Of a DNA stretch of 64,000 bases, positions 1,550 to 24,366 are shown piece by piece. Within the stretch, counting starts at the first letter, position 1. Each line of letters begins with the position of its first letter. A program made the position numbers and the translations under genes. The notes beneath the pieces were generated by a model. The model had not been told where the DNA came from, did no database searches, and was given only the letters and a program-made list of their open reading frames with translations. The stretch spans positions 58,059-122,058 of the forward strand of contig JBEKSG010000001.1 in NCBI GenBank assembly GCA_049997855.1, written 5' to 3'. This DNA is from Minisyncoccia bacterium. Lineage in GTDB: Bacteria; Patescibacteriota; Minisyncoccia; Phycocordibacterales; SBAW01.

Positions 1550-1648
1550 CGAGCACCGGCAAGCATGTTTTGAGTGATTTTTGTATGAATGTAGCCTAAA
1601 AATAACCCTCATTTTCCCACCAAAAACGCTCTAGGCGCCTTTTTCTTT

Positions 1649-2174: not shown

Positions 2175-2180
2175 CACTAC

Positions 2181-2660: not shown

Positions 2661-2704
2661 GCGTACACTATAACATTCGTATGTTTTTGCGGTAGACTAA
2701 CCAT

Positions 2705-3901: not shown

Positions 3902-3937
3902 TTGCAACTTATTTGCGTTTGTGATAAGGTAAAGGCA

Positions 3938-5291: not shown

Positions 5292-5295
5292 CAAC

Positions 5296-6919: not shown

Positions 6920-6956
6920 ACCTTCGTTACAACTTACGAAGGTTTAACCTCCGTAG
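6911..6956. repeat. REP doublet (inverted pair GAGGTTAAACCTTCGT / ACGAAGGTTTAACCTCCGT) between znuB and pilB
   Basis: Same palindromic family as REPs at 12062-12106, 12792-12829, 13402-13420; also acts as a likely terminator hairpin. Confidence 0.7.
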
Positions 6957-6997
6957 AGACTAGACAGAGAAAGGCTTTTTGGTATAACGGGCGCACT

Positions 6998-8164: not shown

Positions 8165-8169
8165 CCGGC

Positions 8170-9667: not shown

Positions 9668-11115
9668 CGCAAAAGGGTTTTTCGACGGTAGAGATGCTGG
9701 TAGCCATGACTCTCATGCTGCTCACGCTCGCGGCCGCGCTGCTCCTCTCTTTTGGAAGCCAATCATTGCTTGCGGACAGTGCCGGCAATACCGAGGCGCT
9801 TTCGCTGGCAGATGAGATACTCGGCAACGAGGAGGCGCTTGCGCGCAAAGATTTTAATTTAGTAGTCCCGACCACCGCCATCGCAACAATTGGCTCAACC
9901 GCCTACACCGAGTCGGTCGCTGTTCTGACACAAAACAACTCCTTAACTAAAAAAGTGACCGTCGCCGTGTCGTGGACGGGCGAGTACGGCCGCGCCGAGC
10001 AGGTGTCGCTCGGCACGTATGTCACCGACTTTGAAAATGCATTCTCGAGCGATACATGCGATACCGATCTTTCGGGTAACTGGATGGCTCCTATCGTGGC
10101 GAACGCAGTGCAAAACTTCGCGCAGCTCGCGGATGACGCCTCCGGCACGTACACGCTCACCGATGTAAAAGCTCGCCAAGGCAAGCTGTATGTCACCGCA
10201 AGCAACAGCTCGTCCGGTAAAGAAACTTTTTTTATTTTTACTCTTGCAAACAATATTCCGACTTTATTATCAAAGCTCGACAACGACGCCAAGCACAACA
10301 CCGGCCTCGCGGCGGTCGCGCTCTCAAACAATTACGCGTATGTCGCCGGTGCGCTTTCAAGCGACCAGCTCCAAATAATCGACATTAGCAATCCGAGCAA
10401 TCTGGCAAGCTCGAGCATTGTCGCGACCTATAAAATCCCCGCAAGCGATGTCCCCAATGCAGGCGCCGGCAACGCTATTTTTTATAAAAACGGTTATGTA
10501 TATCTCGGCCTCGTCGCGAGCGGCGGCGGCGAGTTTAACATCATCGACGTGCGCAATCCGCAAAGCCCCGAGTGGGTGGGGAGCTACAACGTCGGTAATG
10601 CGGTCAACGGCATATATATAGAAGGCTCGTACGCCTATCTCGCCAGCCCCAACGCGCGCAATCTTATCGTGCTCGACATCAGCAATCCGGCGAATCCGCT
10701 CTTGGTGGGTTCGTATACTCCTGCCACGAGCGCCAACGGCGAGCGAGTTCTCGCACTGGGCGACACCGTATATCTCGGCCGCACGTACGGCACCAACGAA
10801 CTCTATGCGTTAAACGCGACCGCGCCCGCTTCCATTGTGCCGCTTGGTTTTAAAGATTTGGGTGTGGGGAGCAATACCAGCATCAACGGCATGGTGTTGC
10901 GCTCGAACATCGCTTTTTTGCTCACCAACAAACAGCTCGTGAGTTACGACATGAGCAACCCGGCGGCTATCTCTGCATACGGTGCGCCGCTTGTGCTCCC
11001 AAACGCCACATCCGGCGCGGCGCTTGCGTGCGACGGCAACACACTCTTTGCGGCGGCTAACGACGCAAGCACTAACGGTCACGGCTACCTGTATGTGATA
11101 CAACCCGGCGTATGA
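9661..11115 (+). CDS. Pseudopilin-like protein fused to an LVIVD-repeat beta-propeller domain (candidate pilus tip adhesin)
   Basis: N-terminus KGFSTVEMLVAMTL (prepilin-like), followed by at least 4 repeats of the LxIIDISNP...VGSY type (LVIVD repeat). Confidence 0.6.
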   Translation: MVAQKGFSTVEMLVAMTLMLLTLAAALLLSFGSQSLLADSAGNTEALSLADEILGNEEALARKDFNLVVPTTAIATIGSTAYTESVAVLTQNNSLTKKVTVAVSWTGEYGRAEQVSLGTYVTDFENAFSSDTCDTDLSGNWMAPIVANAVQNFAQLADDASGTYTLTDVKARQGKLYVTASNSSSGKETFFIFTLANNIPTLLSKLDNDAKHNTGLAAVALSNNYAYVAGALSSDQLQIIDISNPSNLASSSIVATYKIPASDVPNAGAGNAIFYKNGYVYLGLVASGGGEFNIIDVRNPQSPEWVGSYNVGNAVNGIYIEGSYAYLASPNARNLIVLDISNPANPLLVGSYTPATSANGERVLALGDTVYLGRTYGTNELYALNATAPASIVPLGFKDLGVGSNTSINGMVLRSNIAFLLTNKQLVSYDMSNPAAISAYGAPLVLPNATSGAALACDGNTLFAAANDASTNGHGYLYVIQPGV

Positions 11116-11621
11116 ATAAAAAAATAACACAAGGATTTATCCGTCATGACGCCGGGTTTACGCTTATCGAAGTGATTATGTATCTCGCGCTTTTTAGCAT
11201 ACTGATGGCGGGCTCGCTCTCGGCTGCTTTTGCGCTGTGCGAGAGCAGCGGACACGAGCGCACGCGCGCGTTGTTGCTTGAGGAAGGCAATTTTATTATC
11301 GCCAAAACGGAGTGGGAACTTTCGGGCGCAGAACTTGTCACCGATCCAAGCGTCGGCAACTCCGGCGCGACGCTTTCGATTGAAAGGGTGTCGGGATACG
11401 ACAACACCGGCGCTCCTGTAACAAACGCCGTAGTGTTCGATCCGTCAACATTGGTTGGCGGCGGAGTTTCGCTTGCCTCCGTGCGTTTTTACCACGCCGC
11501 TGATTCGGGTATCGGTGCCAATCCCGAGAGCGTTGGCATAAGCTTTACGCTTGCTATGCGCACCGAGCAAGGTGCGCTGATGAGCCAAAGTTTTTTTAGC
11601 ACAACGACGCTTAAAAAATGA
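11112..11621 (+). CDS. Prepilin-type minor pilin/pseudopilin
   Basis: AGFTLIEVIMYLALFSIL N-terminal methylation motif. Confidence 0.7.
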   Translation: MNKKITQGFIRHDAGFTLIEVIMYLALFSILMAGSLSAAFALCESSGHERTRALLLEEGNFIIAKTEWELSGAELVTDPSVGNSGATLSIERVSGYDNTGAPVTNAVVFDPSTLVGGGVSLASVRFYHAADSGIGANPESVGISFTLAMRTEQGALMSQSFFSTTTLKK

Positions 11622-12058
11622 CTATGAAAAAACGGGGATTTATCGCGCTCATGTCCGTCATCATACTCTCGGCTGTCTTGCTCGGGATGGCAGCCACCGC
11701 GAGTACCGCGGGATTTTTTGCGCGGTTTAGCGCGCTCGATAAGGAGTATAAAAAAAGCGCGCTTGGGCTTGCCGACTCGTGCGCTAATGTCGCCCTTCTT
11801 ACTCTCGCGCAAAATTACGCATATACGCCCACTCTGCCTGTCGTGGTGTCGCTTGACAGCGACACATGCACCATACAATCAATAACCAACCTCGGCGCGC
11901 CCTCCGCCTCCTCGCGCACGGTGCTTATTACCGCTACAGCCAGTTATCGGGAGGCGTTTAGCGCAGTCGAGGTAAACGCCACGGCAGCAAACCCCGCTAG
12001 TAGTGCCTCTCCGGTCGCCTATCCCATAATCATTAACTCCTGGCGAGAAATCAACTAA
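11618..12058 (+). CDS. Pilus-associated small protein with N-terminal hydrophobic anchor (PilX-like minor pilin candidate)
   Basis: KRGFIALMSVIILSAVLLGMA N-terminus without Glu+5; operon position among pseudopilins. Confidence 0.4.
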   Translation: MTMKKRGFIALMSVIILSAVLLGMAATASTAGFFARFSALDKEYKKSALGLADSCANVALLTLAQNYAYTPTLPVVVSLDSDTCTIQSITNLGAPSASSRTVLITATASYREAFSAVEVNATAANPASSASPVAYPIIINSWREIN

Positions 12059-12061
12059 TAT

Positions 12062-12106
12062 ACGGAGGTTAAACCTTCGTTTAATGTACGGAGGTTAAAC
12101 CTCCGT
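12062..12106. repeat. REP doublet (ACGGAGGTTAAACCTTCGT + ACGGAGGTTAAACCTCCGT, direct) flanking the RAYT 3' end
   Basis: 19-bp perfect palindrome ACGGAGGTT-A-AACCTCCGT seen directly. Confidence 0.75.
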
Positions 12107-12761
12107 TTTCTCCGTAGGAAAGCCATTCTTTGAGACTATGTCTAAAATCTAACGCGGTTTCAAAATACTTTGGCAGCGTTGTTTTATTGAGAATGTTACC
12201 TTCTATACGTTTTGTGCCAATATAATCGGGATAACTTGAGTACGGATATTTTTTGAGATATGTTTCCGCTCTATTTTTGTCGGCAATGCCAGTCTCTTTC
12301 CATGCCGGTTCGATTAATTTTACCGGGTTTAAATGGATATAAGAAATAAGGTAAGAGAGATAGCGATCTTCACTAACGTGCGATGATTTGTATGTCCCTT
12401 GGAAGAGTGCACCTGAGTGTTTATATTTTTTATTAAAGTACATCGTGTAAGCTGTCGTCAGTTTCTGCATAAACTTGCTTATGCCCCCGTCTGCTTTTTC
12501 GTGCACAAGCAAATGAAAATGATTTGGCATTAAACAATAGACGCCAATATCTGTCAGGGTCTCTCCGCGCTCAACCATGTGGGCTTTTTCAAGCGTTTGA
12601 CCCTGCGCTCTGGTATCCGTTGAAATACTGCTATTACAGAGATAGAGAAGTGATATAAAACGATCATAATCTATTTGGGAGGTAAAAATGTCCCTTTTTT
12701 CGACGCCGCGATTGTATAAGTGGTAAAACTCTCCTGGTGCAAAGACGCTTTTTCGTGCCAT
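12081..12761 (-). CDS. REP-associated tyrosine transposase (RAYT; IS200/IS605-like Y1 HUH transposase)
   Basis: YHLYNRG, HUH motif NHFHLLVHE, C-terminal Tyr region. Gene bracketed by REP palindromes on both sides; the last residues GGLTSVH are encoded by the REP itself. Confidence 0.75.
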   Translation of the reverse strand: MARKSVFAPGEFYHLYNRGVEKRDIFTSQIDYDRFISLLYLCNSSISTDTRAQGQTLEKAHMVERGETLTDIGVYCLMPNHFHLLVHEKADGGISKFMQKLTTAYTMYFNKKYKHSGALFQGTYKSSHVSEDRYLSYLISYIHLNPVKLIEPAWKETGIADKNRAETYLKKYPYSSYPDYIGTKRIEGNILNKTTLPKYFETALDFRHSLKEWLSYGENGGLTSVH

Positions 12762-12791
12762 GGCGGCACTATACCAATCTGAAAAAAATAC

Positions 12792-12829
12792 ACAAAGGTT
12801 TAACCTTTGTACGGAGGTTAAACCTCCGT
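12792..12829. repeat. REP doublet (ACAAAGGTTTAACCTTTGT variant + ACGGAGGTTAAACCTCCGT) flanking the RAYT 5' end
   Basis: Direct sequence observation. Confidence 0.75.
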
Positions 12830-12877
12830 AACTTACGTGGGGCTTTACAAAGCTTGGAGTTTTGGTAGAGTCCCCGC

Positions 12878-13393
12878 ATGCAAACTATAAAGGACATTAT
12901 AAAGGACATTTTTTATAAAGGACAGAAAAAAACAGAAGTAGCAAAAGGTTTTACGCTTATCGAGATTTTGGTCGTTATTGGCATCATCGCCATTTTGGCG
13001 GCTATTGTGATAGTTGCCGTCAATCCTGCCCGCCAATTTGCCGAGGCGCGCAATAGTCAACGCCAAAGCAACGTTGAGTCTATCCTCAACGCGGTAGGGC
13101 AAAATATTGCCGACAATAAAGGGGTTTTTATCTGTGCGGCGGGCACACTCCCTCCAATTGCCACTACGATAGAAAGCACCGGCGGCTACGACTTGCGCGG
13201 ATGCATCGTGCCAACCTACATGGCCGAGATACCGGTTGACCCGTCAATCGGCACCATCTCAAGCGACGGCAGCACCTACAACACCGGCTATACCATCATG
13301 CAAAGCGCCTCAACCGCGCGCATCACGGTGTGCGCGCCCGGCGGCGCCGAGCCTGCAATCCAAGGGAGTGCCGCCATTTGCGTTACGCGATAA
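12878..13393 (+). CDS. Type IV major pilin (PilA-like)
   Basis: KGFTLIEILVVIGIIAILAAIVIVAVNP classical type IV pilin N-terminal helix, 24-aa basic leader, C-terminal Cys pair (CAAG...C, C...C). Confidence 0.75.
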   Translation: MQTIKDIIKDIFYKGQKKTEVAKGFTLIEILVVIGIIAILAAIVIVAVNPARQFAEARNSQRQSNVESILNAVGQNIADNKGVFICAAGTLPPIATTIESTGGYDLRGCIVPTYMAEIPVDPSIGTISSDGSTYNTGYTIMQSASTARITVCAPGGAEPAIQGSAAICVTR

Positions 13394-13515: not shown

Positions 13516-15357
13516 TTGACCGATTTATTAAATTATTTTAATAGTATGAATATCCAACGCACCGGCTCGACGTTTGTTTCCGGAATTCTTTTAGGTCTCG
13601 CTCTGTTTGTAGGTATTTCTTCTGCAGCGCAACCGGCTCCAGTTAAAGCACAATCTGTGCCGCTTGGCAGTCAGATTGTGTGTTTTGTTTTTACTAGTCT
13701 CAACATGTTTGGTCAGCCTATTCCGCCTCTGAGCACCAGTGATTGTCCGAGTGCGCCATCATACGGCACAGGCACACTTACAGTTATGAAAGTTGTTGTG
13801 GGAGGCACTGCAGTATCTTCTGGTTTTAGTATTCATGTTAAAAGTGGAGGTACTGATATCTCATACAGCCCGCAGCCGGGCTCAGTAACCGGGACCTCAT
13901 ATATCAGCCTTACGCCGGACAATTACACGGTGAGCGAAACAGGAGGGCCAGCCAACTACATCGGCGTCTTTAGTGGTGATTGCAACCCAAGCGGGATTGT
14001 ATCCGTGGCATCAAGTAGTATTCCTGCCGTGTGCACCATCACTAACACCTACACCGGATCGAGCGGAGGTGGGGGAGGCACGGCAAGCACGTCCGACCTC
14101 TCGATCAGTAAAACGGTCAGCACAAGTACTCCTAACGAGGGACAGACCATTACCTACACGCTTACGGTACACAACATCGGTCCCGATACGGCGCAGCATG
14201 TTTCGGTTACTGATATGCTCCCGGCAGGCCTCACTTATGTTTCCGATGACAGCGGGGGTACCTATACTCCAAGCACAGGAATCTGGCTTGTAGGTACAGT
14301 GACAACCCTGGCAAACGCTTTGCTCCATATCGTTGCCACAGTGGGCAATACCACAAATACTATTACCAACACAGCCAACATCGCTGCCGCCAGCAGCACC
14401 GACCCGGTAAGCACCAACAACACGGCACAGGTGAGCATTACGCCAGTAGCTCCCTCAAGCGGTGGCGGAGGCGGCGGCGGTGGAAGTGGCGGAAGTGGAA
14501 CCACCACCTCGGATGTAGCTATCACCAAAACAGTCGACAACAGCACGCCCAATATTGGCGGCACTGTCACCTACACAATCACTGCAAGCGATAGCGGGGT
14601 AGACGCAAGCGGCGTGGTAGTGCAGGACATTCTGCCCAGCGGGCTTACCTTTGTCTCAACCAGCACTGCCGACACGGTGGGTGTGTACAACCCGACCACG
14701 GGCAACTGGACTATAGGCGCTCTGAGCAGCACGACTCCTGCCGTGCTCCATATTATGGCTACCGTAAACAGCAGTTTGGACAACGGCACGGTTATCACCA
14801 ACACAGCTGCGGTGACCAGTGGCGATACTTCCTCGGATAGCGCAAACAACTCATCTTCGGCGCCGGTAACCGTTACTATCCCCGTTACGCCAACTAATAC
14901 CACTGGTGGTGGCGGAGGCGGTGGAGGTGGCGGGGGGGGCGGCGGTGGTGGAATTATCTCTGGTCCGCTCTCATACGGATACGGCGGAGGAGGAGGATAC
15001 CTAACACCGGGCTTGGTGCTCGGTACTTCTACCCAACAAGGAACATCGTGCGGTACATACCTCACCAGCTATTTGCGCATGGGCAGACCAAACGATGCCG
15101 GACAGGTTAAAAAACTGCAGACCTTCCTCAATACTTATGCCGGCGCAAAACTCCCGGTTACCGGCTTCTTTGGCAAGCTTACCGATGCGGCTGTGCGCAA
15201 GTTCCAGACGCAATATACCGCAGACGTGCTCACGCCGTGGATACCATACGGTCTTCCCGTTAACGAGACCACCGGCTACGTGTACAAGACAACGCAGCGC
15301 AAAATTAATCTTATTATGTGCAGCGCTCTCAACCTTCCGATGCCAAGGCTCCCTTAG
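13516..15357 (+). CDS. Large secreted cell-surface protein: DUF11-like conserved repeat domains separated by poly-Gly linkers, C-terminal peptidoglycan-binding (PG_binding_1-like) domain
   Basis: Signal peptide; two repeats LSISKTVSTSTPNEGQTITYTLTVHNIGPD.../ITKTVDNSTPNIGGTVTYTITASDSG... (DUF11 style); G8-G16 linkers; C-terminus RMGRPNDAGQVKKLQTFLN...GFFGKLTDAAVRKFQ. Confidence 0.65.
   Translation: MTDLLNYFNSMNIQRTGSTFVSGILLGLALFVGISSAAQPAPVKAQSVPLGSQIVCFVFTSLNMFGQPIPPLSTSDCPSAPSYGTGTLTVMKVVVGGTAVSSGFSIHVKSGGTDISYSPQPGSVTGTSYISLTPDNYTVSETGGPANYIGVFSGDCNPSGIVSVASSSIPAVCTITNTYTGSSGGGGGTASTSDLSISKTVSTSTPNEGQTITYTLTVHNIGPDTAQHVSVTDMLPAGLTYVSDDSGGTYTPSTGIWLVGTVTTLANALLHIVATVGNTTNTITNTANIAAASSTDPVSTNNTAQVSITPVAPSSGGGGGGGGSGGSGTTTSDVAITKTVDNSTPNIGGTVTYTITASDSGVDASGVVVQDILPSGLTFVSTSTADTVGVYNPTTGNWTIGALSSTTPAVLHIMATVNSSLDNGTVITNTAAVTSGDTSSDSANNSSSAPVTVTIPVTPTNTTGGGGGGGGGGGGGGGGIISGPLSYGYGGGGGYLTPGLVLGTSTQQGTSCGTYLTSYLRMGRPNDAGQVKKLQTFLNTYAGAKLPVTGFFGKLTDAAVRKFQTQYTADVLTPWIPYGLPVNETTGYVYKTTQRKINLIMCSALNLPMPRLP
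14932..14939 (+). repeat. G8 homopolymer inside the poly-Gly linker coding region of ORF 13516..15357
   Basis: cggggggggc seen directly; a potential slipped-strand site. Confidence 0.5.
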
Positions 15358-15610
15358 AGCCTATTTGACATCAACACAGCACAAAGTAACATAACCCGGC
15401 TGAGCTACGCTTGGCCGGAGACTCCGTGCTTCGATACGACTCTTAGATGGGTCCAAAACCTTCCGGCTTTCCGCTGGTTTCCCAGGAATTTGGACCCATC
15501 TAAACGCCGTATCTATACAGTATATGCCCATGGCAATGAATCTTTTTTGAAGAGTGCATATTGACGGGGTATCCTGCTCGTTCTCCAGTCGTAGCCGGAG
15601 ATAAAAATCA

Positions 15611-15639
15611 TTGACACTTCATAGTGAGCTTACGATAAT
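15611..15639 (+). promoter_or_regulatory. Sigma70-like promoter TTGACA-N17-GATAAT
   Basis: Consensus -35, 17-nt spacer, near-consensus -10; a second copy of the ATTGACACTTCAT element at 15802-15814. Confidence 0.5.
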
Positions 15640-15663
15640 GTATACGTTCAAGGAGCACGTACA

Positions 15664-15702
15664 ATGCTCTTACGAACAGGGAAACCGGCGACAGCCACAT
15701 GA
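15664..15702 (+). CDS. Candidate 12-aa sORF MLLRTGKPATAT with strong RBS AAGGAG (15650-15655, 8-nt spacing)
   Basis: Sits between the promoter at 15611 and the terminator at 15749. Could be a leader peptide or a small-protein gene; could equally be a non-coding RNA. Confidence 0.25.
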   Translation: MLLRTGKPATAT

Positions 15703-15748
15703 CTGTTGCTATTTTTTCTGTGTCACTATTAATTGGTTCAAAACTGAA

Positions 15749-15792
15749 GCGAAACGCTGCATAAGCGTTTCGCTGTTTTTGTTTTTTGTTTC
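15749..15792 (+). terminator. Rho-independent terminator: GCGAAACGCT-GCATA-AGCGTTTCGC followed by TGTTTTTGTTTTTTGTTT
   Basis: 10-bp perfect stem, 5-nt loop, U-rich tail. Confidence 0.7.
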
Positions 15793-15976
15793 AAAAATTG
15801 TTTATTGACACTTCATGTAGAGTTCAGAGCTTAGCCGCACAATACAACACGTGAGGCTGTGCTGTGAACTGTACAAGTACAGTCCACAAAAAGGTCGATG
15901 CCCCGACATCGCGCTCGCCGTACGGAGGCGAGATGCCGGGATTACCAATTATTTAAATTAAAAGCTTCAGAACTCT

Positions 15977-16648
15977 ATGAACAAACTTATTGCAGTGGCA
16001 ACAGGACTCGCGATGCTCGCAATGGCATCTCCGGCGTTCGCATCGGTCAACAGCAGCTCGATTACCATCTTGAACACGAACTCGGGTTACATCAGCAACA
16101 CCACTTCTGCAGTGGCACAAACCGGCGGCAATACCGCAGGCGGAAGCAATGCAGGGCATGGTGGCAATGGTGGCAGTATCGTTGCTGCCGGTAGCGGCAC
16201 TGACAACAACGGCGGTGCGACAGCCGGCAATGCCGGCAATGGAGGCAGCTCCAGCGCAGGCGGCACGGTCTCTTCGGGTGCTGCAACGTCGGACTCAGGC
16301 TCGGCAAACGCACTCAACAGCAATGTTGTTACGGTTAGCGGAGGCACCCTGAATAGTTCCTCGGCAACAGTGGAAAACAGCAATACCGGTAGTTATATTT
16401 CGGACGGCACCACTGCAGGCGCTCAAACAGGCGGCAATCATGCGCACGGTAGCAATGCTGGCAACGCTGGCAATGCCGGAAGCGTCGGTTCGAACGGCGG
16501 TAGCGGCAACAACGGCGGCGCGACGAGCGGCAATAGCGGCAGCGGCGGCAATAGCGGCACGGGCGGCTATGTTGCGACTGGCGCTTCGAGCGCAACTTCG
16601 GGCAGCATCAACGTGATGAACACGAACATCATTCGCACGCACTTCTAA
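15977..16648 (+). CDS. Secreted Gly/Asn/Ser/Thr-rich repeat protein (paralogous repeat family shared with 19151..22378 and 22424..22939)
   Basis: Signal peptide MNKLIAVATGLAMLAMASPAFA; repeats of the type TGGNTAGGS...ALNSNVVTV / SINVMNTNII. Confidence 0.55.
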   Translation: MNKLIAVATGLAMLAMASPAFASVNSSSITILNTNSGYISNTTSAVAQTGGNTAGGSNAGHGGNGGSIVAAGSGTDNNGGATAGNAGNGGSSSAGGTVSSGAATSDSGSANALNSNVVTVSGGTLNSSSATVENSNTGSYISDGTTAGAQTGGNHAHGSNAGNAGNAGSVGSNGGSGNNGGATSGNSGSGGNSGTGGYVATGASSATSGSINVMNTNIIRTHF

Positions 16649-16793
16649 ATCGCTGAAGGTTAGACGAGTTCGCTCGTGTAATATAGCGATTCTTTGAGGG
16701 TTCGGGAGCTTGGGTTAGCAAGCTCCCGCCCTCGGGAGAGTCTTTTGGGAAAGAAGGTTGTCCGGAGGGTTATTACTAACTTATTAGCAGCTA

Positions 16794-18983
16794 ATGATAA
16801 AAATTATGAAAAAACTCCTTACCAGCATCGCGACCATAGCGGCGGCTACGTTGTTTCTCGCCTCGGCGGGGCTTGCGTCAGCGTCATCTGTTGTCCCTGT
16901 GTACAACTTACAGCCGAGCTGGACAGCAGTCGGCGGTGTGGGCGTCTGGGCCGCGTATTACGCGCCTGATTCACAAGTCAGTTCTGGCATATCACCAGGA
17001 ACGACAGCAATCTACGATGGACGTGCGGCTGGCGTCATTAAGGCCGGTATTACCGCAGAACCGTCTGGGCCAAACGCAGGACACTACATGGATGAAGGTC
17101 TCCTAGGCTTTCAAGTGCCGAATGTAAGCCTCTCTTCATTCGCTTCGCAGACGCTCACATATGACGTCGATAAACAGACAGGCACAAACCCAGTGTGGGT
17201 ACGTATCAGACTGACAGATACAAATCAAACTGAATACCAGTTCATACCAACCACTAATCCCGCAGGCTGGCACACGGTTGACGCCGCTGCCGGGCAATGG
17301 CAGTTAATGGATGCCAATGGCGATGGCACTGGCCCAATGATGACACTTGCGCAGGTCGCTGCGGCCAATCCCGGGTTGGCGGTAGACCGCGTCTACTTGA
17401 CGTTGGGTATGGGCGATTCGTACAACGTAAGTCCCGGTGTCGGGACCGAAGCGTGGGTTGATACAGTCACAGTCGGCGGGACGACATATGATTTTGCACT
17501 TTCAGCGGTCACTGTCACGATAGATAAATTTATCGATGGGCACATGGCAACGGCGGCGAGCGCGAATAATTCCGCGTTCCCGATGGTTTCATCATGGACA
17601 AACGCTCCCAGTTACGGCAGTGGCAATTACGATCTCGGAACAGATGATTCATATCAAGCTGTTACGTCATCCATGAACGGAGGTGCGAGCTACACGACCA
17701 ATGAAGTAACCGCTCCATCTTCTGTCGTTGGCACAGACTGTACGACAGGAGATCCGTACGCACTCGTCGGTTATTCCTCCGGTCCGGATCTTACAACTGC
17801 AGAGGCGGCGACCCAGAGCCTGACACCTCCAAACTTCACTACTCTCACTCAAAATGAAGTGGTAATCGTCTGGAACAAGGAATGCCTCGCAGCCCCGACT
17901 CCGCTCGCTCCAGCAAATGGCACCATAACAACGACCGCAGGCTTTACCTCGGTGAGTTGGAATTCGGTAACGGATCAGGCCGGCGGCATCACGTATGTCT
18001 ACCAATCCTCTAATTCTTCGGCCACGAAACCTGATGGTTCGTTCGTGACACCGGCATACACCTCTGGATCCCTAACCGCAACGAACATCCCGACATCCGG
18101 AACTCCGGCAGGCACTTACTACTGGCACGTGCAGGCGAAAGATGCCGATGGCAACGTCAGCCCATGGAGTACGATGTGGTCGGTTACAGTCATCAACACT
18201 CCCGCAGTGATCACCAATCCTGCCACTAACGTGACTGCAACTGATGCAACACTCAACGGTGTCAATGAGGGGAACGGTGCTGGCGGACACTCGTTCTGGG
18301 TTTCGCTTGCTCCGTTCGTCACTACGAGCCCGACCATTCCGGCTGGCGTTTATTCCACGCCTGTTCTTCCGGGCGTTGCGGCGAACACGGCATTTTCTGA
18401 TCCTCTTTCGCTGGTTACCACGAACGGTATTCCAGGTAACATGCCCGCAATAACGCCAAGCACGAAGTACTACTACGCAGCATGGGCTTACATCGGTGGC
18501 ACCTGGTATCCGGGCGCAGTCTTAAACTTCACCACCCTCGCCGCACCAGTCCTCCTTCCGACTCCGGTCAATGCGTGTTCTAACCTCACGAGCCCTCCTG
18601 CAAACTACGTGCTGAAGAACGGCGTGGCGGGCAACGGCACATACGCACTTGCGCCATACACAATGTTCGTTGGCAAAGCCGGTAATTACACCGTGACCGG
18701 CTCCGGCGGGGATTACATCATCTGTCTCCCCAACGGAAACGGTACGGTCAATCTCGGCTACGGCAACGATACGGTCGTGACCGGCAACGGCAATCAGAAC
18801 ATCACGGTCGGCGCGGGCAATAGCGTCATCACGACCGGCAATGGCAACAGCAAGATTACCGCAGGCGCGGGCAATGACACCATCACCGTCGGCAATGGCA
18901 ACAATACAATCATCGCAGGCGGAGGCGCGAGCATTTGCCATGTCGGCAAAGGTCTCAATTCCATCACCGGCTGCACGCACTAG
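16794..18983 (+). CDS. Large secreted protein with FN3-like domains and C-terminal Gly/Asn-rich beta-roll-like repeats (GNGNxxITxGxGN)
   Basis: Signal peptide; FN3-like segment PAGTYYWHVQAKDADGNVSPWS; C-terminal GNDTVVTGNGNQNITVGAGNSVITTGNGNSKITAGAGNDTITVGNGNNTIIAGGGAS. Confidence 0.5.
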   Translation: MIKIMKKLLTSIATIAAATLFLASAGLASASSVVPVYNLQPSWTAVGGVGVWAAYYAPDSQVSSGISPGTTAIYDGRAAGVIKAGITAEPSGPNAGHYMDEGLLGFQVPNVSLSSFASQTLTYDVDKQTGTNPVWVRIRLTDTNQTEYQFIPTTNPAGWHTVDAAAGQWQLMDANGDGTGPMMTLAQVAAANPGLAVDRVYLTLGMGDSYNVSPGVGTEAWVDTVTVGGTTYDFALSAVTVTIDKFIDGHMATAASANNSAFPMVSSWTNAPSYGSGNYDLGTDDSYQAVTSSMNGGASYTTNEVTAPSSVVGTDCTTGDPYALVGYSSGPDLTTAEAATQSLTPPNFTTLTQNEVVIVWNKECLAAPTPLAPANGTITTTAGFTSVSWNSVTDQAGGITYVYQSSNSSATKPDGSFVTPAYTSGSLTATNIPTSGTPAGTYYWHVQAKDADGNVSPWSTMWSVTVINTPAVITNPATNVTATDATLNGVNEGNGAGGHSFWVSLAPFVTTSPTIPAGVYSTPVLPGVAANTAFSDPLSLVTTNGIPGNMPAITPSTKYYYAAWAYIGGTWYPGAVLNFTTLAAPVLLPTPVNACSNLTSPPANYVLKNGVAGNGTYALAPYTMFVGKAGNYTVTGSGGDYIICLPNGNGTVNLGYGNDTVVTGNGNQNITVGAGNSVITTGNGNSKITAGAGNDTITVGNGNNTIIAGGGASICHVGKGLNSITGCTH

Positions 18984-19150
18984 CTTTCGTCGAACATCAT
19001 ATGAAAAAGACGTAATTATCAAATAAATCGAAGGTGAGGATGACGGCGCCTCGGCGCATCGAATCCTCCCTTCTCATAAAGCCTTGTTTCTGGTATAAGA
19101 GACAGACCTCAAACACCCCAACGAGGCTTTAGAGAGGGAAACAATACATT

Positions 19151-22100
19151 ATGCATATACTGAAAAAGGATTGGACGTTGCCCACAGCCTCGCTAAGCGC
19201 TTTTTTGGTTCTTTCTCTTGTTGCCATTTCTTTCGGTATCTCGGCGCATGCTCAAACGGTGCCGACCGTTGCGCTTGCTCCCATCACGGGTCCTACGGTC
19301 ACCGTCGGAGATATTGCCACCTTTACCGCAAGCGCGACTGATTCAGATGCGAGCAGTACCATTGCCTACGGTCTCTCCGCCGCGCCTTCCGGCGCCATCA
19401 TCGACCCCACAGCCGGCACCTTCTTGTGGGATACCACCGGCGCTACGCCCGACACCTACACCTTTTCGGTAACGGCAACCGGCTCAACCGGCGGGTCCGA
19501 CAGCCAGAATGTCTCGATTGTCGTCAACGCTCCCGTCGTTCCGTCAGATGCAGACGCGTCTTCAACAGACCCCGATTTGCAAACACAGGTTGCCACCTCG
19601 ACCGACGGCACCGGCGGCACCGCCACCACGACCGGCGGGACAGTAACTACCGGCGACGCGGTTGCAACATCCAGCGTCGACAATGAGCTCAACTCCAACA
19701 CCACCGACCCCGACCAGCCGGGAAGAACAAACTCTTCAACCATTACGAGCGACAACACTAACGTCGGTGCGCTCGACAGTGTCGCAACCTCAACGGCGGA
19801 TACCGGCAGCAACACCGTGACCGGCGGCACTGCGGATAACACGATCGTCACCGGCGACGCCGTCTCAACCTCCAACGTCATCAACGAGGTCAATACCAAC
19901 ATCTTTAACTCCGACGGCCTCATCCTTTTTATCAACCAGCTCTTTGGCGGCGGTTTTGATATCAACGATTACGACCTTTCATACTTTTTTGCGGGCGGTC
20001 CCGGGATGTCAGAGACAACCAACCCGACCACCGGCAAGCCGCAATGCACTCTGCTCACGTGCCTCAATAGCAGCTCGCTCAACGTTCTTAATAGCAACAC
20101 GGCAACGGTAACCAACAGCGTTATCGTGCGCTCCTCAACCGGCGACAACACCGCTTCTTCCACCGGCGATGCCACCATAGACACCGGCAGCGCCTACGCC
20201 GCAGCCAACGTGGTCAACCTCGTCAACACCAACATCGTCAATTCGAGCTATCTCTTGCTCTCATTTAATAACTTTGGCGATTTGAGCGCCAATATCACGC
20301 TCCCCGGCAATGACTTTTTCCAACAGCTTTTTGCAAACGGCGAGGCGACCTCCTCGATGAACTCGAGCACCTATGCGGTAGACAACGTTAACAGCGTCGA
20401 CTTTACCGGCACCACGACGGCGGATGCGACAACGGGCGACAATATGGCATCGACAACCACCGCCGACGCGTCAACCACGCCAAGCGGCAGCGGGGTGGTT
20501 GCCACCGGCGACGCCTATTCATCGGCAAACACCTACAATCAGGCAAATACCAACGACGTCGGGGGCACCTCCGTCTTCATGCTCTTTCGCGTGGCGGGCA
20601 ATTGGACAGGGTCGGTCATCGGTTTGCCTGCCGGTATAACCGAGTCAACATTTCCCGACGGCAACGACCAACTCATTGAGTTTGTCTCGACCGGAGCTTC
20701 GACGACGCTTGCGACCGATTGGCTGCAAAAGTACAATTCCTCGCACTTTCTCGCGGCCGCGACAAGCACTGCCAATGTCGACAACGACGTTACGGTGTCT
20801 GCGGACACGGGCAGTAATCAGGCAACCACGGACACCGGCACCTCGTCGGTTACCACCGGCAACGCCTATGCGGCGGCGAGCGTGGTCAACCTCATAAACA
20901 CCAACATCGTCGGGCAAAATTGGATATTCTCCGTTTTTAACATCTTTGGCAATTTTAGTGGCGATATTGTCTTTGGCGGCAGCCTCAATCTTTCGCTGAG
21001 CGCGCTCACATCGACAAGCAATACATCTCCAAGCTCGGATGTGACCTATACCTTTACGGTGACAAACTCGGGCGATGCGGATGCAAGCAGCGTTCTTTTG
21101 AATGCAACCTTCGACAATACCTTGCTGTCGTTTGCTCCCACAGACATAGATGCCACATCGACTCCCGCGGGCGAGTCATGGAATCTTGGTCTTATTCCAC
21201 AAGGGCAGAGCCGGACCTTCAGCTTTACGGCGCATGTGGGCAGCAACTTCCCTGCCGGGCAATCGGCTACGGTCCCTCTGACAGCTGCGGTAGTAAACGA
21301 CAGCATCACGGCCCCCAGCACAAGCAACACTGCCGACGCGTCGATTGTCGTTTCGTCGCCTGCAAACCCTTCGACAAGCTCAGGATCTTCGAGCGGCGGT
21401 GGAGGGGGCGGTGGAGGCGGCGTCCTCAGCAGTTCAAATCCGCTCAGCTCATACTCGAATGATCCCAAGCTTTCGCTTACCAAAACGGTGTCTATCGCAA
21501 CGACCAGCGCAACAACCTCTGTCGATTACAAAGTGGTAGTTACCGACGACAAAAGCGCAGGACCTCTCTTCAACTCGTACCTTACCGACACGCTCACCGA
21601 CCCTACCGGCAAAGTGATGATGCAGCGCTCGTGGAATCTCGATACAATCAACCCGGGAGACGAAATAGACCTCACCTACTCGATAGTGTATGCCGCCACC
21701 TCGACTCCCGGCATCTACAACAACGTCGCGCAAGTCACCGGGTATAAAAACTACAGCGGGCTCGCGTACGGGACTCTAATATCGCCATTGGCGGCTACCG
21801 GCACGGTGTTGTTTACCCCGGAGGGCTACGTCGTCGCATCGAGCACGTCGGAGGGTATTGTCCTCGGTGCATCAACCTCTACCCCCTCTATTACCACTCC
21901 GACATCTTGCTCGCCTCTGCTCTCCACCTTCCTCGGTCGTGGTAGGGCAAACGATGCCGGTCAAGTAATGAAGCTCCAGCAGTTTCTTAACGATGAAGTG
22001 GAAGCCGCACTCCCAATCACCGGCGTCTTTGGCCCGCTCACCGAGGGGGCGGTAAAAGCGTTTCAAAGTAAGTATAAGGACCAGATACTCGCTCCGCTCG

Positions 22101-22378
22101 GCCTTACCGCTCCAACCGGCATAGTACTTTCCGCGACGCAGAGCCAAATAAACGCCTTGGTCTGCAATAATACCGGGTTGAGTTATCTCTTTACCACTGC
22201 TGAGCAAGTTACGAGCGTAGCGGCGCCAATGATAGCGCCGGTATATGTACCTAAGCCGCACATTGTAAAAACGCCAAGAGTGCCACAAACAGCTGCTGCT
22301 CCAACAACTGTTTCCGCCACTCCCGCCGCACCAAAGGCCGGACCCTTGGGATGGATCAAAAACCTATTTTCGTTCTAA
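19151..22378 (+). CDS. Very large (1075 aa) secreted surface protein: N-terminal TGDxxA...NTNIV repeat region, DUF11-like domains, poly-Gly linker, C-terminal peptidoglycan-binding domain
   Basis: Signal peptide; at least 5 repeats such as TGGTADNTIVTGDAVSTSNVINEVNTNIFN; C-terminus GRGRANDAGQVMKLQQFLN...GVFGPLTEGAVKAFQ paralogous to the 13516 C-terminus. Confidence 0.65.
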   Translation: MHILKKDWTLPTASLSAFLVLSLVAISFGISAHAQTVPTVALAPITGPTVTVGDIATFTASATDSDASSTIAYGLSAAPSGAIIDPTAGTFLWDTTGATPDTYTFSVTATGSTGGSDSQNVSIVVNAPVVPSDADASSTDPDLQTQVATSTDGTGGTATTTGGTVTTGDAVATSSVDNELNSNTTDPDQPGRTNSSTITSDNTNVGALDSVATSTADTGSNTVTGGTADNTIVTGDAVSTSNVINEVNTNIFNSDGLILFINQLFGGGFDINDYDLSYFFAGGPGMSETTNPTTGKPQCTLLTCLNSSSLNVLNSNTATVTNSVIVRSSTGDNTASSTGDATIDTGSAYAAANVVNLVNTNIVNSSYLLLSFNNFGDLSANITLPGNDFFQQLFANGEATSSMNSSTYAVDNVNSVDFTGTTTADATTGDNMASTTTADASTTPSGSGVVATGDAYSSANTYNQANTNDVGGTSVFMLFRVAGNWTGSVIGLPAGITESTFPDGNDQLIEFVSTGASTTLATDWLQKYNSSHFLAAATSTANVDNDVTVSADTGSNQATTDTGTSSVTTGNAYAAASVVNLINTNIVGQNWIFSVFNIFGNFSGDIVFGGSLNLSLSALTSTSNTSPSSDVTYTFTVTNSGDADASSVLLNATFDNTLLSFAPTDIDATSTPAGESWNLGLIPQGQSRTFSFTAHVGSNFPAGQSATVPLTAAVVNDSITAPSTSNTADASIVVSSPANPSTSSGSSSGGGGGGGGGVLSSSNPLSSYSNDPKLSLTKTVSIATTSATTSVDYKVVVTDDKSAGPLFNSYLTDTLTDPTGKVMMQRSWNLDTINPGDEIDLTYSIVYAATSTPGIYNNVAQVTGYKNYSGLAYGTLISPLAATGTVLFTPEGYVVASSTSEGIVLGASTSTPSITTPTSCSPLLSTFLGRGRANDAGQVMKLQQFLNDEVEAALPITGVFGPLTEGAVKAFQSKYKDQILAPLGLTAPTGIVLSATQSQINALVCNNTGLSYLFTTAEQVTSVAAPMIAPVYVPKPHIVKTPRVPQTAAAPTTVSATPAAPKAGPLGWIKNLFSF

Positions 22379-22423
22379 ATCGCAGTATAATGGGTTGATA
22401 CGGAGCGTACCCACCAACAACCT

Positions 22424-22939
22424 ATGAACTACCAGATAGCCATACTATGTATCGTGTTGGCAGCACTCCTGCCTGCCTCTGTGCATGCGCAAGTAATTTC
22501 TAACGTCAGCGCCTCTTCAGATACAGGAGGCAATACCGCAGAGAGCGGCACGGTTACCACAGGCGCATCAAGCGCCTCGGTGAAGGTAGAAAACATAAGC
22601 GGGGGAGGGGGAGGCACAGCAACCGTGCATATTGAGACCAGCGTAAATGGACAAACACACGAAGAAACCTACACTATGCCTGGCGGAAGCATCGGCGTCT
22701 CGGTCGTTGCAACCTCAAGCGGCTACGAGGCGCATGTGTGGGAGCCGGGGGCATCAACGCCTCAAAGCGGGAGCGTACACCGCGGAGCCTACGCATTAAC
22801 CTCTCTTTTGGAACACAACCAAGCGTCTACGAGCATCGCTTCCTCCATCGCAAGCTCTACAGCACAGGCGCATTTTATTGGGCGGATTTCAAGCTGGTTT
22901 GAGAGATTATTTAATATCTTCGGCTGGTTCGGCAAATAG
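22424..22939 (+). CDS. Small secreted protein of the same Thr/Gly repeat family
   Basis: Signal peptide; DTGGNTAESGTVTTGASSASVKVENISGG. Confidence 0.5.
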   Translation: MNYQIAILCIVLAALLPASVHAQVISNVSASSDTGGNTAESGTVTTGASSASVKVENISGGGGGTATVHIETSVNGQTHEETYTMPGGSIGVSVVATSSGYEAHVWEPGASTPQSGSVHRGAYALTSLLEHNQASTSIASSIASSTAQAHFIGRISSWFERLFNIFGWFGK

Positions 22940-22980
22940 TCGCTGGAGTATATAGAACATTTGACCGTAGTGTATACTAT

Positions 22981-24366
22981 ATGCATATGAGTAACTTGGT
23001 AAAAGCCCTCGTGGCTTTGGGCGCGGCAATTTTATTGGTAGGCAGTTTTTCGTTCGCATATGCACAAGGTTTGGACATTGGACAGTTGCAATCTCGCAGT
23101 AGCATATCCGGCGCTATCAATGCTTTCGTCGATCAACTGAAAGCAAAAGGCGACCCCGTCCCCGCAGAGGACCGCGATGCATATATCAACGGCAATAGTT
23201 TGGCGCGGTCCGGTGCCGCGTTCCAACCATACATCAAGGTGTGCACCGATGCGGGAGTAGGGCAGGCAAGCTGCAACGCGCGCGTCATTACCGACTCTGC
23301 CGGCGTGCCGGTTACTAATGCACGGAATCCGTCACAGTCATCGGCACTCCCCGCGGGCTACGGACCGGCGCAGTTCCACGGCGCCTACAACTTGCCGCTG
23401 ACCGCGGCGGCGGGCACACCGATCATCGCCATCGTCGATGCGTATGATGACCCGAACATTGCAAGCGACCTCAACACCTACAGCACCATGTACGGCTTAC
23501 CTCAATGCACTACCGCAAACGGATGCTTTAAGAAAGTAAATCAAACCGGCGGCACTAAATATCCAAACTCCAACGCCGGCTGGGCGCTTGAGATTTCGCT
23601 TGATGTCGAAATTGCGCATGCCACATGCCAAAATTGCAACATTATGCTTGTCGAAGCCAACTCGGCCACCTATACCAACCTTATGGCCGCAGAGGACTAC
23701 GCAATAGCTCATGCATCCGTGGTCTCAAACTCCTGGGGTAGCGGCGAGTTCGGCGGAGCCTCAGGCGAAACGTCCTATGACTATCACTTTACCAATCCAA
23801 ACCACCCGGGTGTGGCTATTACCTTTAGCGCCGGAGACGGCGGCTATGGCGCGGAGTACCCGGCTTCCTCGCCGTATGTCACGGCGGTCGGCGGCACTTC
23901 ATTGTCTGTAAACTCGCTCGGCAACAATACGTATAGCTATAAGAGCGAGAGCGCATGGAGCGGGACAGGGAGCGGTTGCAGCTCCTACGAGCCGCAACCG
24001 TCTTGGCAAACTGCATTAGGTCTTTCGGGATGTTCTAAACGAATAGTTGCCGATGTTTCGGCAGATGCCGATCCTAATACCGGCGCGGCGGTGTACGACT
24101 CGGTGCGCTACGCAGGCATGAGCGGTTGGTTCCAAGTCGGAGGCACGAGCCTGGCGTCGCCCATCATTGCGGCAACGTATGCCCTTTCGGGCAACATTCC
24201 CGCCAATACGTCTGAAAATTCTATCCCGTATAAAAACGTGGGCGATTTGCGCGATGTGACATCGGGCAGCAACGGCTCTTGCGGCGGCTCATACCTCTGC
24301 ACGGCCATGCCTGGCTTTGACGGTCCTACCGGCGAGGGCACTCCCAACGGCACAGCGGCATTTTAG
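22981..24366 (+). CDS. Secreted serine peptidase, sedolisin-like (S53; possibly S8 clan)
   Basis: Signal peptide; EISLDVEIAHA (sedolisin GExxLDVE-type Glu/Asp motif); catalytic Ser motif GGTSLASPIIAA; no HGT His motif. Confidence 0.55.
   Translation: MHMSNLVKALVALGAAILLVGSFSFAYAQGLDIGQLQSRSSISGAINAFVDQLKAKGDPVPAEDRDAYINGNSLARSGAAFQPYIKVCTDAGVGQASCNARVITDSAGVPVTNARNPSQSSALPAGYGPAQFHGAYNLPLTAAAGTPIIAIVDAYDDPNIASDLNTYSTMYGLPQCTTANGCFKKVNQTGGTKYPNSNAGWALEISLDVEIAHATCQNCNIMLVEANSATYTNLMAAEDYAIAHASVVSNSWGSGEFGGASGETSYDYHFTNPNHPGVAITFSAGDGGYGAEYPASSPYVTAVGGTSLSVNSLGNNTYSYKSESAWSGTGSGCSSYEPQPSWQTALGLSGCSKRIVADVSADADPNTGAAVYDSVRYAGMSGWFQVGGTSLASPIIAATYALSGNIPANTSENSIPYKNVGDLRDVTSGSNGSCGGSYLCTAMPGFDGPTGEGTPNGTAAF

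Follow-up and report, generated by a model that had tools for sequence, protein, structure and literature searches.

In Streptomyces, a monoderm, the chaplins are co-encoded as long wall-anchored proteins (ChpA-C) and short secreted ones (ChpD-H), built on ~40-aa hydrophobic amyloid domains (presumably those of Pfam PF03777) with sortase anchoring. In curli and Fap fibers, a subunit polymerizes on a surface partner built from the same repeat. CLIPPER (DUF11)-stalk fibrillar adhesins combine a signal peptide, Ig-like DUF11/CLIPPER stalks and a C-terminal anchor (Protein Sci 2025, PMC12617251). Finally, the Pam pili of Saccharibacteria are CPR-specific surface filaments made from previously uncharacterized secreted proteins, with Ig-like pilins that polymerize by donor-strand exchange and PapD-like chaperones (bioRxiv 10.64898/2026.03.03.709456).

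The locus described here lies at positions 13516-24366 of the window, the whole stretch of 64,000 nucleotides that we analyzed. It consists of six + strand ORFs, in the order g13516, g15977, g16794, g19151, g22424 and g22981, and inspection of the translations by eye indicates that each opens with a Sec-type signal peptide. Their features are as follows:

13516..15357, + strand: g13516, 613 aa; signal peptide, two DUF11/CLIPPER stalks split by Gly runs, G16 linker, anchor
15103-15216, + strand: PG_binding_1 anchor of g13516, aa 530-567 (Pfam PF01471, 27.1 bits, cut-off 23)
15358..15976, + strand: unusually long intergenic region upstream of g15977, with predicted promoter and hairpins
15611-15639, within this intergenic region: predicted near-consensus promoter
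15687-15710 and 15748-15774, within this intergenic region: terminator-like hairpins
15977..16648, + strand: g15977, 223 aa, small secreted paralogue; signal peptide (..SPAFA, followed by SVNSS) and two truncated units
16046-16333, + strand: truncated unit 1 of g15977, aa 24-119, profile positions 1-61
16349-16639, + strand: truncated unit 2 of g15977, aa 125-221, profile positions 1-61
16794..18983, + strand: g16794, 729 aa, secreted, between small and large genes; C-terminal Gly-rich RTX-like nonapeptide segment
19151..22378, + strand: g19151, 1075 aa; signal peptide, Ig domain, predicted beta-solenoid, stalk, peptidoglycan anchor
19265..19528, + strand: He_PIG-type Ig domain at the distal N-terminal tip of g19151, aa 39-126 (PF05345, E 5e-10, 40.1 bits)
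19592..20995, + strand: predicted beta-solenoid region of g19151, aa 148-615, ~470 aa (profile units)
19592-19708, + strand: U0 of g19151, partial unit (profile)
19727-19993, + strand: U1 of g19151 (profile)
20063-20350, + strand: U2 of g19151 (profile)
20357-20698, + strand: U3 of g19151 (profile)
20735-20995, + strand: U4 of g19151 (profile)
20993..21340, + strand: DUF11/CLIPPER stalk of g19151, aa 615-730 (PF01345, 33 bits, cut-off 24.6)
21470..21742, + strand: weak second DUF11-like stretch of g19151 after a G9 linker, aa 774-864 (E 0.0018, 19 bits, below cut-off)
21962..22075, + strand: PG_binding_1 anchor of g19151, aa 938-975 (25.7 bits, cut-off 23)
22331..22375, + strand: C-terminal aromatic amphipathic tail of g19151, ..GPLGWIKNLFSF (seen in the sequence)
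22424..22939, + strand: g22424, 171 aa, second small secreted partner; signal peptide and one half-unit (profile E 3.5e-5)
22484-22597, + strand: half-unit of g22424, aa 21-58 (profile), NTNI ending absent
22889-22936, + strand: aromatic C-terminal tail of g22424, SWFERLFNIFGWFGK, conserved among homologues in other loci
22981..24366, + strand: g22981, 461 aa, secreted sedolisin (S53, kumamolisin-like) peptidase directly 3' of the module (phmmer against PDB)

Both g13516 and g19151 show the fibrillar-adhesin traits of a signal peptide (by inspection), a repeated stalk domain and an anchor, for which peptidoglycan binding is predicted. The DUF11/CLIPPER match is far stronger in g13516 (199.2 bits in two stretches), which also resembles CLIPPER adhesins in matching the isopeptide-forming fimbrial domain model TIGR04226 (NCBIfam, 45.5 bits, cut-off 30). 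Inspection of its sequence points to candidate isopeptide Lys-Asp-Asn motifs (SISKTV, VTDMLP and TNTANI); phmmer did not align its DUF11 with the solved CLIPPER structure, and its N-terminal beta-rich region has no Pfam match. In g19151 the first DUF11 has no Lys for this triad, and K/D/N motifs in the second (SLTKTV, LTDTL, NNVAQV) were noted by inspection only. The Gly runs of the two proteins span 8-16 residues with mixed GGN codons, and their C-termini align (BLASTP E 1.5e-21; aa 920-1006 of g19151). A preliminary description of this DNA had recognized surface proteins here and had assigned the PG_binding_1 domain, DUF11 repeats and G8-G16 linkers to both genes, and it was right on each count, in that these are secreted cell-envelope proteins with the domains and linkers named. 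Unlike described CLIPPER adhesins, however, these proteins have one or two stalks with poly-Gly linkers and a non-covalent PG_binding_1 anchor, and small paralogues regularly accompany the large gene. The distal module of g19151 is also distinct, an undescribed 470-aa solenoid; Pfam and NCBIfam detected no recognized adhesive domain at the distal end, where He_PIG and the solenoid are the only domains.

The likeness to chaplins is one of logic and is seen here in the genes alone: a long wall-anchored multi-copy protein is accompanied by short secreted paralogues with fewer copies. In contrast to chaplin domains, the units are polar, rich in Asn and Thr and ~98 aa long, and anchoring relies on PG_binding_1 or a transmembrane helix. 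No chaplin-family model appears among the Pfam matches of the locus, and there is no sequence relationship. The parallel with a curli or Fap subunit growing on its partner is likewise known from gene arrangement alone; the unit is about 4-5 times longer, and in g19151 a fixed rod of 4.5 units precedes the stalk and the anchor. The Curlin and Fap Pfam models (curli CsgA/CsgB, FapC/FapB) gave no match. No CsgG or FapF outer-membrane secretion genes appear in the gene lists inspected, and none are expected because the Patescibacteria envelope is assumed to have a single membrane. The beta-helix proteins PfbA, UpaB, EtpA/HMW1, RsaA and SufB/SufD share no sequence similarity with the repeat, and structural scores against them reach only the generic level of a fold class. 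Like the Pam pili, the module involves previously uncharacterized secreted surface proteins specific to CPR bacteria, but it contains no Ig-like pilin or PapD-like chaperone genes or folds. In the Saccharibacteria-type loci L006 and L034 only a few kb separate the module from ATP synthase genes, and the Pam-pilus preprint mentions a conserved unnamed 'tail fibre-like protein' near such genes (bioRxiv 10.64898/2026.03.03.709456).

A repeat unit of about 98 residues

The preliminary description had noted a repeat of about 35 aa ending in NTNI(V/I) in g15977, g19151 and g22424. The sharing holds, but the unit is ~98 aa long (consensus LNSSSLNVSNTNTATVTNNVTVSANTGNNTASGNTGSATITTGDAYAAANVVNLVNTNIVGSNGLLLLINIFGDWNGDIVLP...) and the 35-aa motif is its core, at profile positions ~25-60; the ending is found in g15977, as NSNVV and NTNII, and is missing in g22424. 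Pairwise BLASTP among the three proteins is marginal (E 0.01-0.2), and the similarity is gone once SEG is applied, so we turned to profile and shuffle tests. An HMM, which had been suggested as a check on the repeat, was made from 373 units of 100 homologues of g19151, with neither small gene included, and searched against all 633 six-frame ORFs of the window. It found four full units (E 1e-20 to 1e-34 each) and one partial unit in g19151 and, beyond that gene, picked out only g22424 (E 3.5e-5, bias-corrected) and g15977 (E 7.9e-5 bias-corrected and 3.8e-28 uncorrected, with 75 bits of HMMER bias removed). None of 1000 composition-preserving shuffles reached the real score of either small protein (g15977, 19.0 bits against a shuffle maximum of -19.8; g22424, 16.8 against 11.9). 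Additionally, less biased relatives of the small genes adjoin the large gene elsewhere, such as a 210-aa protein in L001 (E 6e-21). Low-complexity filtering, which the preliminary description had named as a possible end of all similarity between the three genes, therefore does remove it at the pairwise level, whereas the profile and shuffle signal stays.

Small and large proteins share one register, NSSS..N.N...I.N...A.A.TG.N.A ... TG.A.A....N..N.N. Each unit of g15977 carries a ~35-aa Gly/Asn/Ser-rich insert and lacks the last, hydrophobic segment; homologues of this protein reach 49-52% identity, some of them labeled Kaiserbacteria and Patescibacteria, and its AlphaFold2 model alone, with a pLDDT of 49 from a 15-sequence alignment, is uninformative. 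In g22424 the half-unit is followed by a conserved 'T..NG...E' beta segment and then a Ser/Thr-rich spacer. The RTX GGxGxD nonapeptide is absent from the repeat of all three proteins. Across homologues of g19151 the rod is constant in unit number and invariant residues: only G, N, A, T, W and P are near-invariant, no acidic, basic or His residue is conserved in the family alignment, and a CxxxxC loop is conserved between units 1 and 2. The near-invariance of these residues alone suggests that the role of the rod is structural, not catalytic, and the units themselves are old and position-specific, not recent copies.

The C-terminal anchor, in contrast, swaps among homologues. PG-anchored relatives (P0002, P0013 and P0054) have aromatic tails similar to that of g19151, and others have a transmembrane helix and basic tail at this position. 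Because the anchors are interchangeable while the rod remains constant, the rod is probably displayed at the surface. The preliminary description anticipated a beta-helix. A solenoid-like fold is predicted for the repeat region of g19151, and Foldseek found no match to the solenoid model in PDB or BFVD. Searches of Pfam, NCBIfam and PDB sequences with the repeat, its consensus and four homologues returned only DUF11 and PG_binding_1, and we found no description of the repeat in the full-text literature. By these searches the family appears to be new, as the earlier failure to recognize a family by inspection had suggested.

A small-large gene module in Patescibacteria

We scanned 35 loci with 11 closer sequences, after setting aside an 81-sequence alignment as too diverse. 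In 31 of them the large gene is closely preceded, on the same strand, by a small ORF that carries the repeat, usually at a distance of 10-230 nt; the other four have no detectable small partner. The small paralogues in the scanned loci always comprise profile positions ~1-61 alone. Reciprocally, all four loci reached from small proteins also hold the large gene. Often, another small gene, of the g22424 type, and a subtilase-clan protease come 3' of the large gene, and homologues of g22424 adjoin it in 10 other loci with the tail conserved.

At 50% identity the family forms at least 1416 clusters, and module loci are labeled Parcubacteria, Kaiserbacteria, Zambryskibacteria, Kerfeldbacteria and Saccharibacteria. 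Every hit with a recognizable taxon name is labeled Patescibacteria, except that three loci of the scan have other, unverified labels assigned automatically to MAGs (two 'Gammaproteobacteria' and one 'Bdellovibrionales'); this statement covers named hits, and ten divergent homologues carry no taxon name. Among named hits, the module thus appears specific to Patescibacteria, and its presence in five differently labeled groups makes it group-wide, so that the earlier term 'lineage-specific' applies to Patescibacteria as a group and not to one narrow lineage. The further claim that the genes expanded in tandem fails: a repeat check of the module region detected no DNA-level repeat, for which reason we rejected recent tandem expansion, and the genes are not equivalent. 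The module is old and fixed, with g15977, g19151 and g22424 as non-equivalent partners.

Genes like g13516 occur upstream of the module in about nine other loci. The long intergenic stretch that precedes g15977 shares 91% identity with its counterpart in the nearest relative, L007, and has no Rfam match. Homologues of g16794 were found only in L007, L009 and L017 among the loci scanned, and this gene, which has a 54-bp tandem period at 18779-18921 and scores 20.8 bits against HemolysinCabind (Pfam cut-off 23), lies outside the module core. The predicted peptidase g22981 has no Pfam match at E <= 0.1 but aligns with kumamolisin 1t1e over aa 119-458 (phmmer against PDB, E 7.5e-15). Its orthologues occupy the corresponding position in L007 and L030, and an S8 peptidase does so in L004. 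Conserved synteny also fits plain co-regulation of independent surface proteins.

A proposed tethered solenoid and its small paralogues

Because small and large genes stand side by side across Patescibacteria, their products probably act together at the cell surface. We favor, with moderate confidence, a beta-solenoid structure at the surface that is tethered to peptidoglycan and works together with the small paralogues. After Sec export, g19151 would attach to the cell wall via its C-terminal PG_binding_1 domain, and poly-Gly linkers and DUF11/CLIPPER Ig-like stalks would push it outward. Its distal half would form a rigid rod of ~470 aa, with 4.5 copies of the ~98-aa beta-solenoid unit and a He_PIG cap. 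g19151 would thus be the anchored member of the module and g15977 and g22424 its small secreted partners, which may dock onto, cap or extend the anchored solenoid through stacked homologous beta-coils. The resulting structure may serve cell-to-cell or cell-to-substrate contact, and the S53 protease g22981 may process module components.

Alternatively, the proteins could be independent, with g19151 and g13516 acting as monomeric wall-anchored fibrillar adhesins and the small paralogues, soluble or loosely bound as decoys or matrix, being only co-regulated. This is possible but unlikely, given that 31 of 35 loci, although very deeply diverged, keep the small-large pairing, that the unit truncation is identical in all small proteins, and that the rod is constant, unlike host-diversifying ligand-binding tips. 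We are more doubtful of a templated beta-solenoid assembly peculiar to Patescibacteria, in which the small paralogue, representing the first three-quarters of a solenoid unit, would grow on the exposed end of the wall-anchored rod. In another version, g22424 and g19151 would complete the small paralogue in trans with their C-terminal tails, which are aromatic and 'coil-4-like' and for which the likeness of SWFERLFNIFGWF to unit 4, NWIFSVFNIFGNF, is offered. Were this true, ultra-small epibionts would reach or hold their hosts by a functional-amyloid-like or donor-coil fiber that needs no dedicated secretion or assembly machine.

An S-layer or sheath, in which the large protein would cover the peptidoglycan as a two-dimensional lattice like beta-helix S-layer proteins and the small ones would be accessories, is improbable; Pfam and NCBIfam revealed no SLH or other known S-layer domain. 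A surface carbohydrate-active beta-helix enzyme of tailspike or pectate-lyase type, degrading host cell-wall polymers, is very improbable, and we rejected it because conserved charged residues are absent: no Asp, Glu, Lys, Arg or His position is conserved across the family. There was also no Pfam enzyme or Beta_helix match, no relative in phage genomes by tblastn and no BFVD match. Finally, that the repeat in g15977 and g22424 is Gly/Thr/Asn/Ser-rich low complexity is hardly credible, since the effect of SEG and the bias stripped from the g15977 score, which favor such an artifact, stand against the shuffles, the selection of only two extra ORFs of 633, the less biased orthologues and the conserved synteny.

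Patescibacteria (CPR) account for much of bacterial diversity, and their cultivated members live attached to other cells, yet very few of their surface structures have been linked to genes so far. The family described here, with its 1416 or more clusters, adds a new predicted type of solenoid unit and a small partner in 31 of 35 loci. Loci labeled Saccharibacteria contain homologous pairs, and this group includes some cultivated strains, which may be genetically tractable. If the small proteins assemble on the anchored rod, the module would represent a new route to a surface fiber in single-membrane bacteria.

A repeat unit common to three genes

Six successive ORFs occupy positions 13516-24366 on the plus strand, and all six start with Sec-type signal peptides (e.g., ..AFA|S, ..AHA|Q, ..VHA|Q, in translations judged by eye). 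The GC content shows nothing unusual. Three of these genes, named by start position as g15977 (223 aa), g19151 (1075 aa) and g22424 (171 aa), had been proposed in a preliminary description to share a repeat of about 35 residues. Pairwise BLASTP between them gave only marginal similarity (E 0.01-0.2), and nothing was left under SEG. As the HMM check of the repeat, a profile of 98 positions was built by aligning four clear units of g19151 and then 373 units taken from 100 of its database homologues, with both small genes left out. Run against the complete six-frame ORF set of the window (633), the profile found four full units and one partial unit in g19151 (E 1e-20 to 1e-34) and matched, beyond that gene, two ORFs only: g22424 (E 3.5e-5) and g15977, whose E value was 3.8e-28 uncorrected and 7.9e-5 once 75 bits of compositional bias had been taken off. 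When the mature sequences were shuffled with composition preserved, none of 1000 shuffles reached the real score of g15977 (19.0 bits; shuffle maximum -19.8) or of g22424 (16.8 bits; shuffle maximum 11.9). Although the loss of pairwise similarity under SEG and the large bias correction for g15977 are what a compositional artefact would give, the selectivity of the profile and the shuffles make that reading less likely, and the similarity is therefore positional and not merely compositional.

Taken by itself, the loss of pairwise similarity under filtering would refute the shared repeat by the terms of the preliminary description; the profile and the shuffles support it, and its description needs amending. 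The 35-residue motif makes up only the core of the unit, which is longer, and g22424 has only a half-unit without the NTNI ending, while g15977 has two units, each broken by a Gly/Asn/Ser-rich insert of ~35 residues. Neither Pfam nor NCBIfam had a match for the repeat region, for its consensus or for four homologues, and the family profile found nothing relevant among PDB sequences, in agreement with the earlier view that no family is recognizable in the repeat by sequence inspection.

A predicted solenoid rod on known stalks and anchors

We modeled residues 130-640 of the large protein, g19151, with AlphaFold2 from an alignment of 81 sequences. The confident model (mean pLDDT 84.6, pTM 0.81, 300 residues at or above 90) is all beta except for two short helices. 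Each unit has the identical pattern of a 21-residue strand, two short strands, and strands of 11, 3 and 10 residues, which suggests about four stacked coils per unit. The model is best described as a beta-solenoid rod (aa 148-615) of a type without a close solved relative. Near-invariant rod positions in the 81 sequences hold only Gly, Asn, Ala, Thr, Trp and Pro, favoring a structural constraint over a catalytic site, and an enzymatic role is accordingly a less likely reading.

The rod family was searched for exhaustively among 1.84 billion representative proteins, which gave at least 1416 clusters at 50% identity (E <=1e-3), 1000 of them at E <=1e-10. Most matches run in one stretch over all 480 residues, in proteins of 700-1250 aa, and the rod is therefore a module of fixed architecture, not a repeat that varies in number. 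A unit-specific feature, the CxxxxC loop between units 1 and 2, is also conserved, and the gene region has no DNA-level repeat. These observations speak against the tandem expansion previously suggested.

The large protein consists, in order, of a signal peptide, a He_PIG Ig domain, the rod, DUF11 (aa 615-730), a G9 linker, a weak second DUF11, PG_binding_1 (aa 938-975), a Pro/Ala-rich segment and an aromatic tail. The first gene of the cluster, g13516, encodes two DUF11 domains and one PG_binding_1. Pfam thus bears out the domains earlier recognized by eye in these two proteins, whose C-termini align with E 1.5e-21 and which both contain runs of 8 to 16 Gly residues with mixed GGN codons. DUF11, recently renamed CLIPPER, is a CnaA-like stalk domain of fibrillar adhesins in which an isopeptide bond is frequent (PMC12617251), and g13516 scores above the threshold of the NCBIfam isopeptide-forming domain model. 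Downstream of the rod, homologues of the large protein differ: most have at least one DUF11-type domain, followed by one of two C-terminal anchor types. One type is PG_binding_1 plus a short aromatic tail, the other a transmembrane helix plus a basic tail. This combination, an unchanging distal module with exchangeable anchors, would be expected for a displayed surface structure.

Short aromatic amphipathic C-terminal tails are alike in g19151 (22331-22375) and the g22424 family (22889-22936). They read GWIKNLFSF, SWFERLFNIFGWFGK and, as a consensus, F..LF..FSWFG; the comparison covered the window genes, four homologues (P0002, P0013, P0014, P0054) and further loci. Other large homologues have the transmembrane helix and basic tail at this position. 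The tail resembles the final segment of the repeat unit (NWIFSVFNIFGNF), and its possible roles are those of in-plane membrane anchor, sorting signal and docking strand.

Pairing of large and small genes

We compared 35 loci, of which 26 came from species-representative genomes and the others were the window and loci encoding homologues from the databases. In 31 of them, the large gene is preceded on its own strand by a profile-matching ORF of fewer than 300 aa, with a gap mostly of 10-230 nt; one of the 31 (L019) probably has a split large gene. The exceptions are L006, whose small homologue is weak (E 0.05), L015, which runs into a contig end, L029, with mid-sized paralogues in place of the small ORF, and L010. 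Pairing is reciprocal, as all four loci reached via small-protein homologues have a large repeat protein downstream. The large gene is tightly coupled genetically to small secreted proteins made of truncated units of the same type, and we refer to the combination as the module.

The small proteins form a family of their own, with 200 matches that are all annotated as hypothetical and of which hardly any has a Pfam domain; where a taxon is named, it is Kaiserbacteria, Patescibacteria or Saccharibacteria. The small proteins have a register of conserved residues in common with the large protein but are always confined to profile positions ~1-61 and therefore stop short of the hydrophobic segment that closes the unit. 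Genes of the g22424 type, which adjoin the large gene in 10 other loci, encode a half-unit, a conserved 'T..NG...E' segment, a Ser/Thr-rich spacer and the aromatic tail. Taxon labels on homologues of the studied proteins are Sungbacteria, Zambryskibacteria, Kaiserbacteria, Parcubacteria, Woesebacteria and Saccharibacteria, which places the window within the Patescibacteria (CPR).

The nearest relatives repeat the whole arrangement, including a g13516-like DUF11/PG_binding protein upstream. By contrast with this core, g16794 has homologues in only three other loci and is thus an insertion outside the module. Its C-terminus (18779-18921) has a 54-bp (18-aa) tandem period encoding Gly-rich 'GNGNxxITxGAGN' RTX-like repeats, which score under the Pfam threshold. 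The last gene, g22981 (22981-24366), encodes a sedolisin-like peptidase with no Pfam match at E <=0.1 and a kumamolisin match in the PDB (E 7.5e-15), and is therefore a divergent S53 family member. A subtilase-clan protease follows the module in other loci as well (S53 in L007 and L030, S8 in L004).

A type IV pilus gene cluster (6998-13393), which includes four proteins with pilin-like N-termini (N-terminal methylation motifs), lies directly upstream of the surface-protein genes. The intergenic region before g15977 (15358-15976, 620 bp) is 91% identical to that of the nearest relative, L007, and had no match in Rfam. It holds the box ATTGACACTTCAT twice (15610 and 15806) and an inverted repeat with 15-bp arms around 15443-15504, and could encode a small RNA or a leader. 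Features of both regions are as follows.

Features upstream of the module
6998-8164, PilB-like ATPase of the pilus cluster
8170-9210, PilC-like platform protein of the pilus cluster
9661-11115, 484-aa protein of the pilus cluster with LVIVD beta-propeller repeats and a pilin-like N-terminus
12081-12761, minus strand, IS200-like Y1 transposase gene separating the pilin genes from the surface-protein cluster
15611-15639, near-consensus promoter (TTGACA-17-GATAAT) upstream of g15977
15687-15710, terminator-like hairpin downstream of the promoter
15748-15774, terminator-like hairpin downstream of the promoter, with an 11-bp stem and T-run

Other loci have neighbors of their own. In L033, a Kaiserbacteria locus, the small paralogue likewise has a Y1_Tnp gene (5492-6190) immediately ahead of it. 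A Zambryskibacteria locus (L001) has an orthologous trio of module genes with less compositional bias (6895-7524, 7652-8023 and 8001-10490). In front of its module, the stretch at 1389-6362 encodes three TasA/camelysin-like proteins, which have SipW-type signal peptides, and a SipW-type signal peptidase that carries a long acidic extension at its C-terminus; the same locus encodes a 217-aa protein with a PEP-CTERM-like C-terminus (188-841, minus strand), which is unexpected if these are single-membrane bacteria. The four Saccharibacteria-type loci (L006, L034, L035, L036) have a 192-197-aa 'TGPDSxN...' variant of the small paralogue, and their large proteins end in DTG(F/V)D(F/M)R, a transmembrane helix and KRLFS, which may be a sorting signal. 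A sortase gene is nearby in three (L006, L034, L036); L006 and L034 also have a glycosyltransferase and a small LPKTSD-type protein nearby, and their modules lie ~7 kb from ATP synthase genes.

Known systems and a proposed mechanism

While the stalk and anchor domains are already known, three elements are new: the ~98-aa solenoid unit with its 4.5-unit rod, absent from every family database searched, the small-paralogue family, and the near-obligate pairing of large and small genes across Patescibacteria. Full-text literature searches turned up an account of none of them. Tip, stalk and anchor are arranged overall as in fibrillar adhesins, and the logic of pairing recalls both Streptomyces chaplins, with long wall-anchored and short secreted forms, and two functional-amyloid pairs, CsgB/CsgA and FapB/FapC. 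When tested for membership, however, the module proteins fell outside the chaplin, curli (Csg) and Fap families. The Pam pili of Saccharibacteria, built from Ig-like pilins by donor-strand exchange, are a different system; the 2026 preprint describing them also notes, close to ATP synthase genes, a conserved 'tail fibre-like protein' that it leaves unnamed (bioRxiv 10.64898/2026.03.03.709456), a location similar to that of the module in Saccharibacteria-type loci.

Inspection of the sequences supports export of the module proteins through Sec, and the domain match supports a putative noncovalent tether of the large protein to peptidoglycan. Ig-like stalk domains on flexible Gly linkers are likewise supported, and the model supports a distal rod that would be rigid and solenoid-like. 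The main rival explanation for the pairing is that the proteins are independent wall-anchored adhesins that are merely co-regulated; an S-layer is less likely, and we consider it improbable that the module builds a templated or 'donor-coil' fiber without an assembly machine. In the mechanism we propose, the small proteins would associate physically with the rod by stacking their homologous coils onto it, and so form its cap or its extension. Module components may be processed by the neighboring secreted protease, and the resulting structure of rod and small proteins would serve in cell-surface contact.
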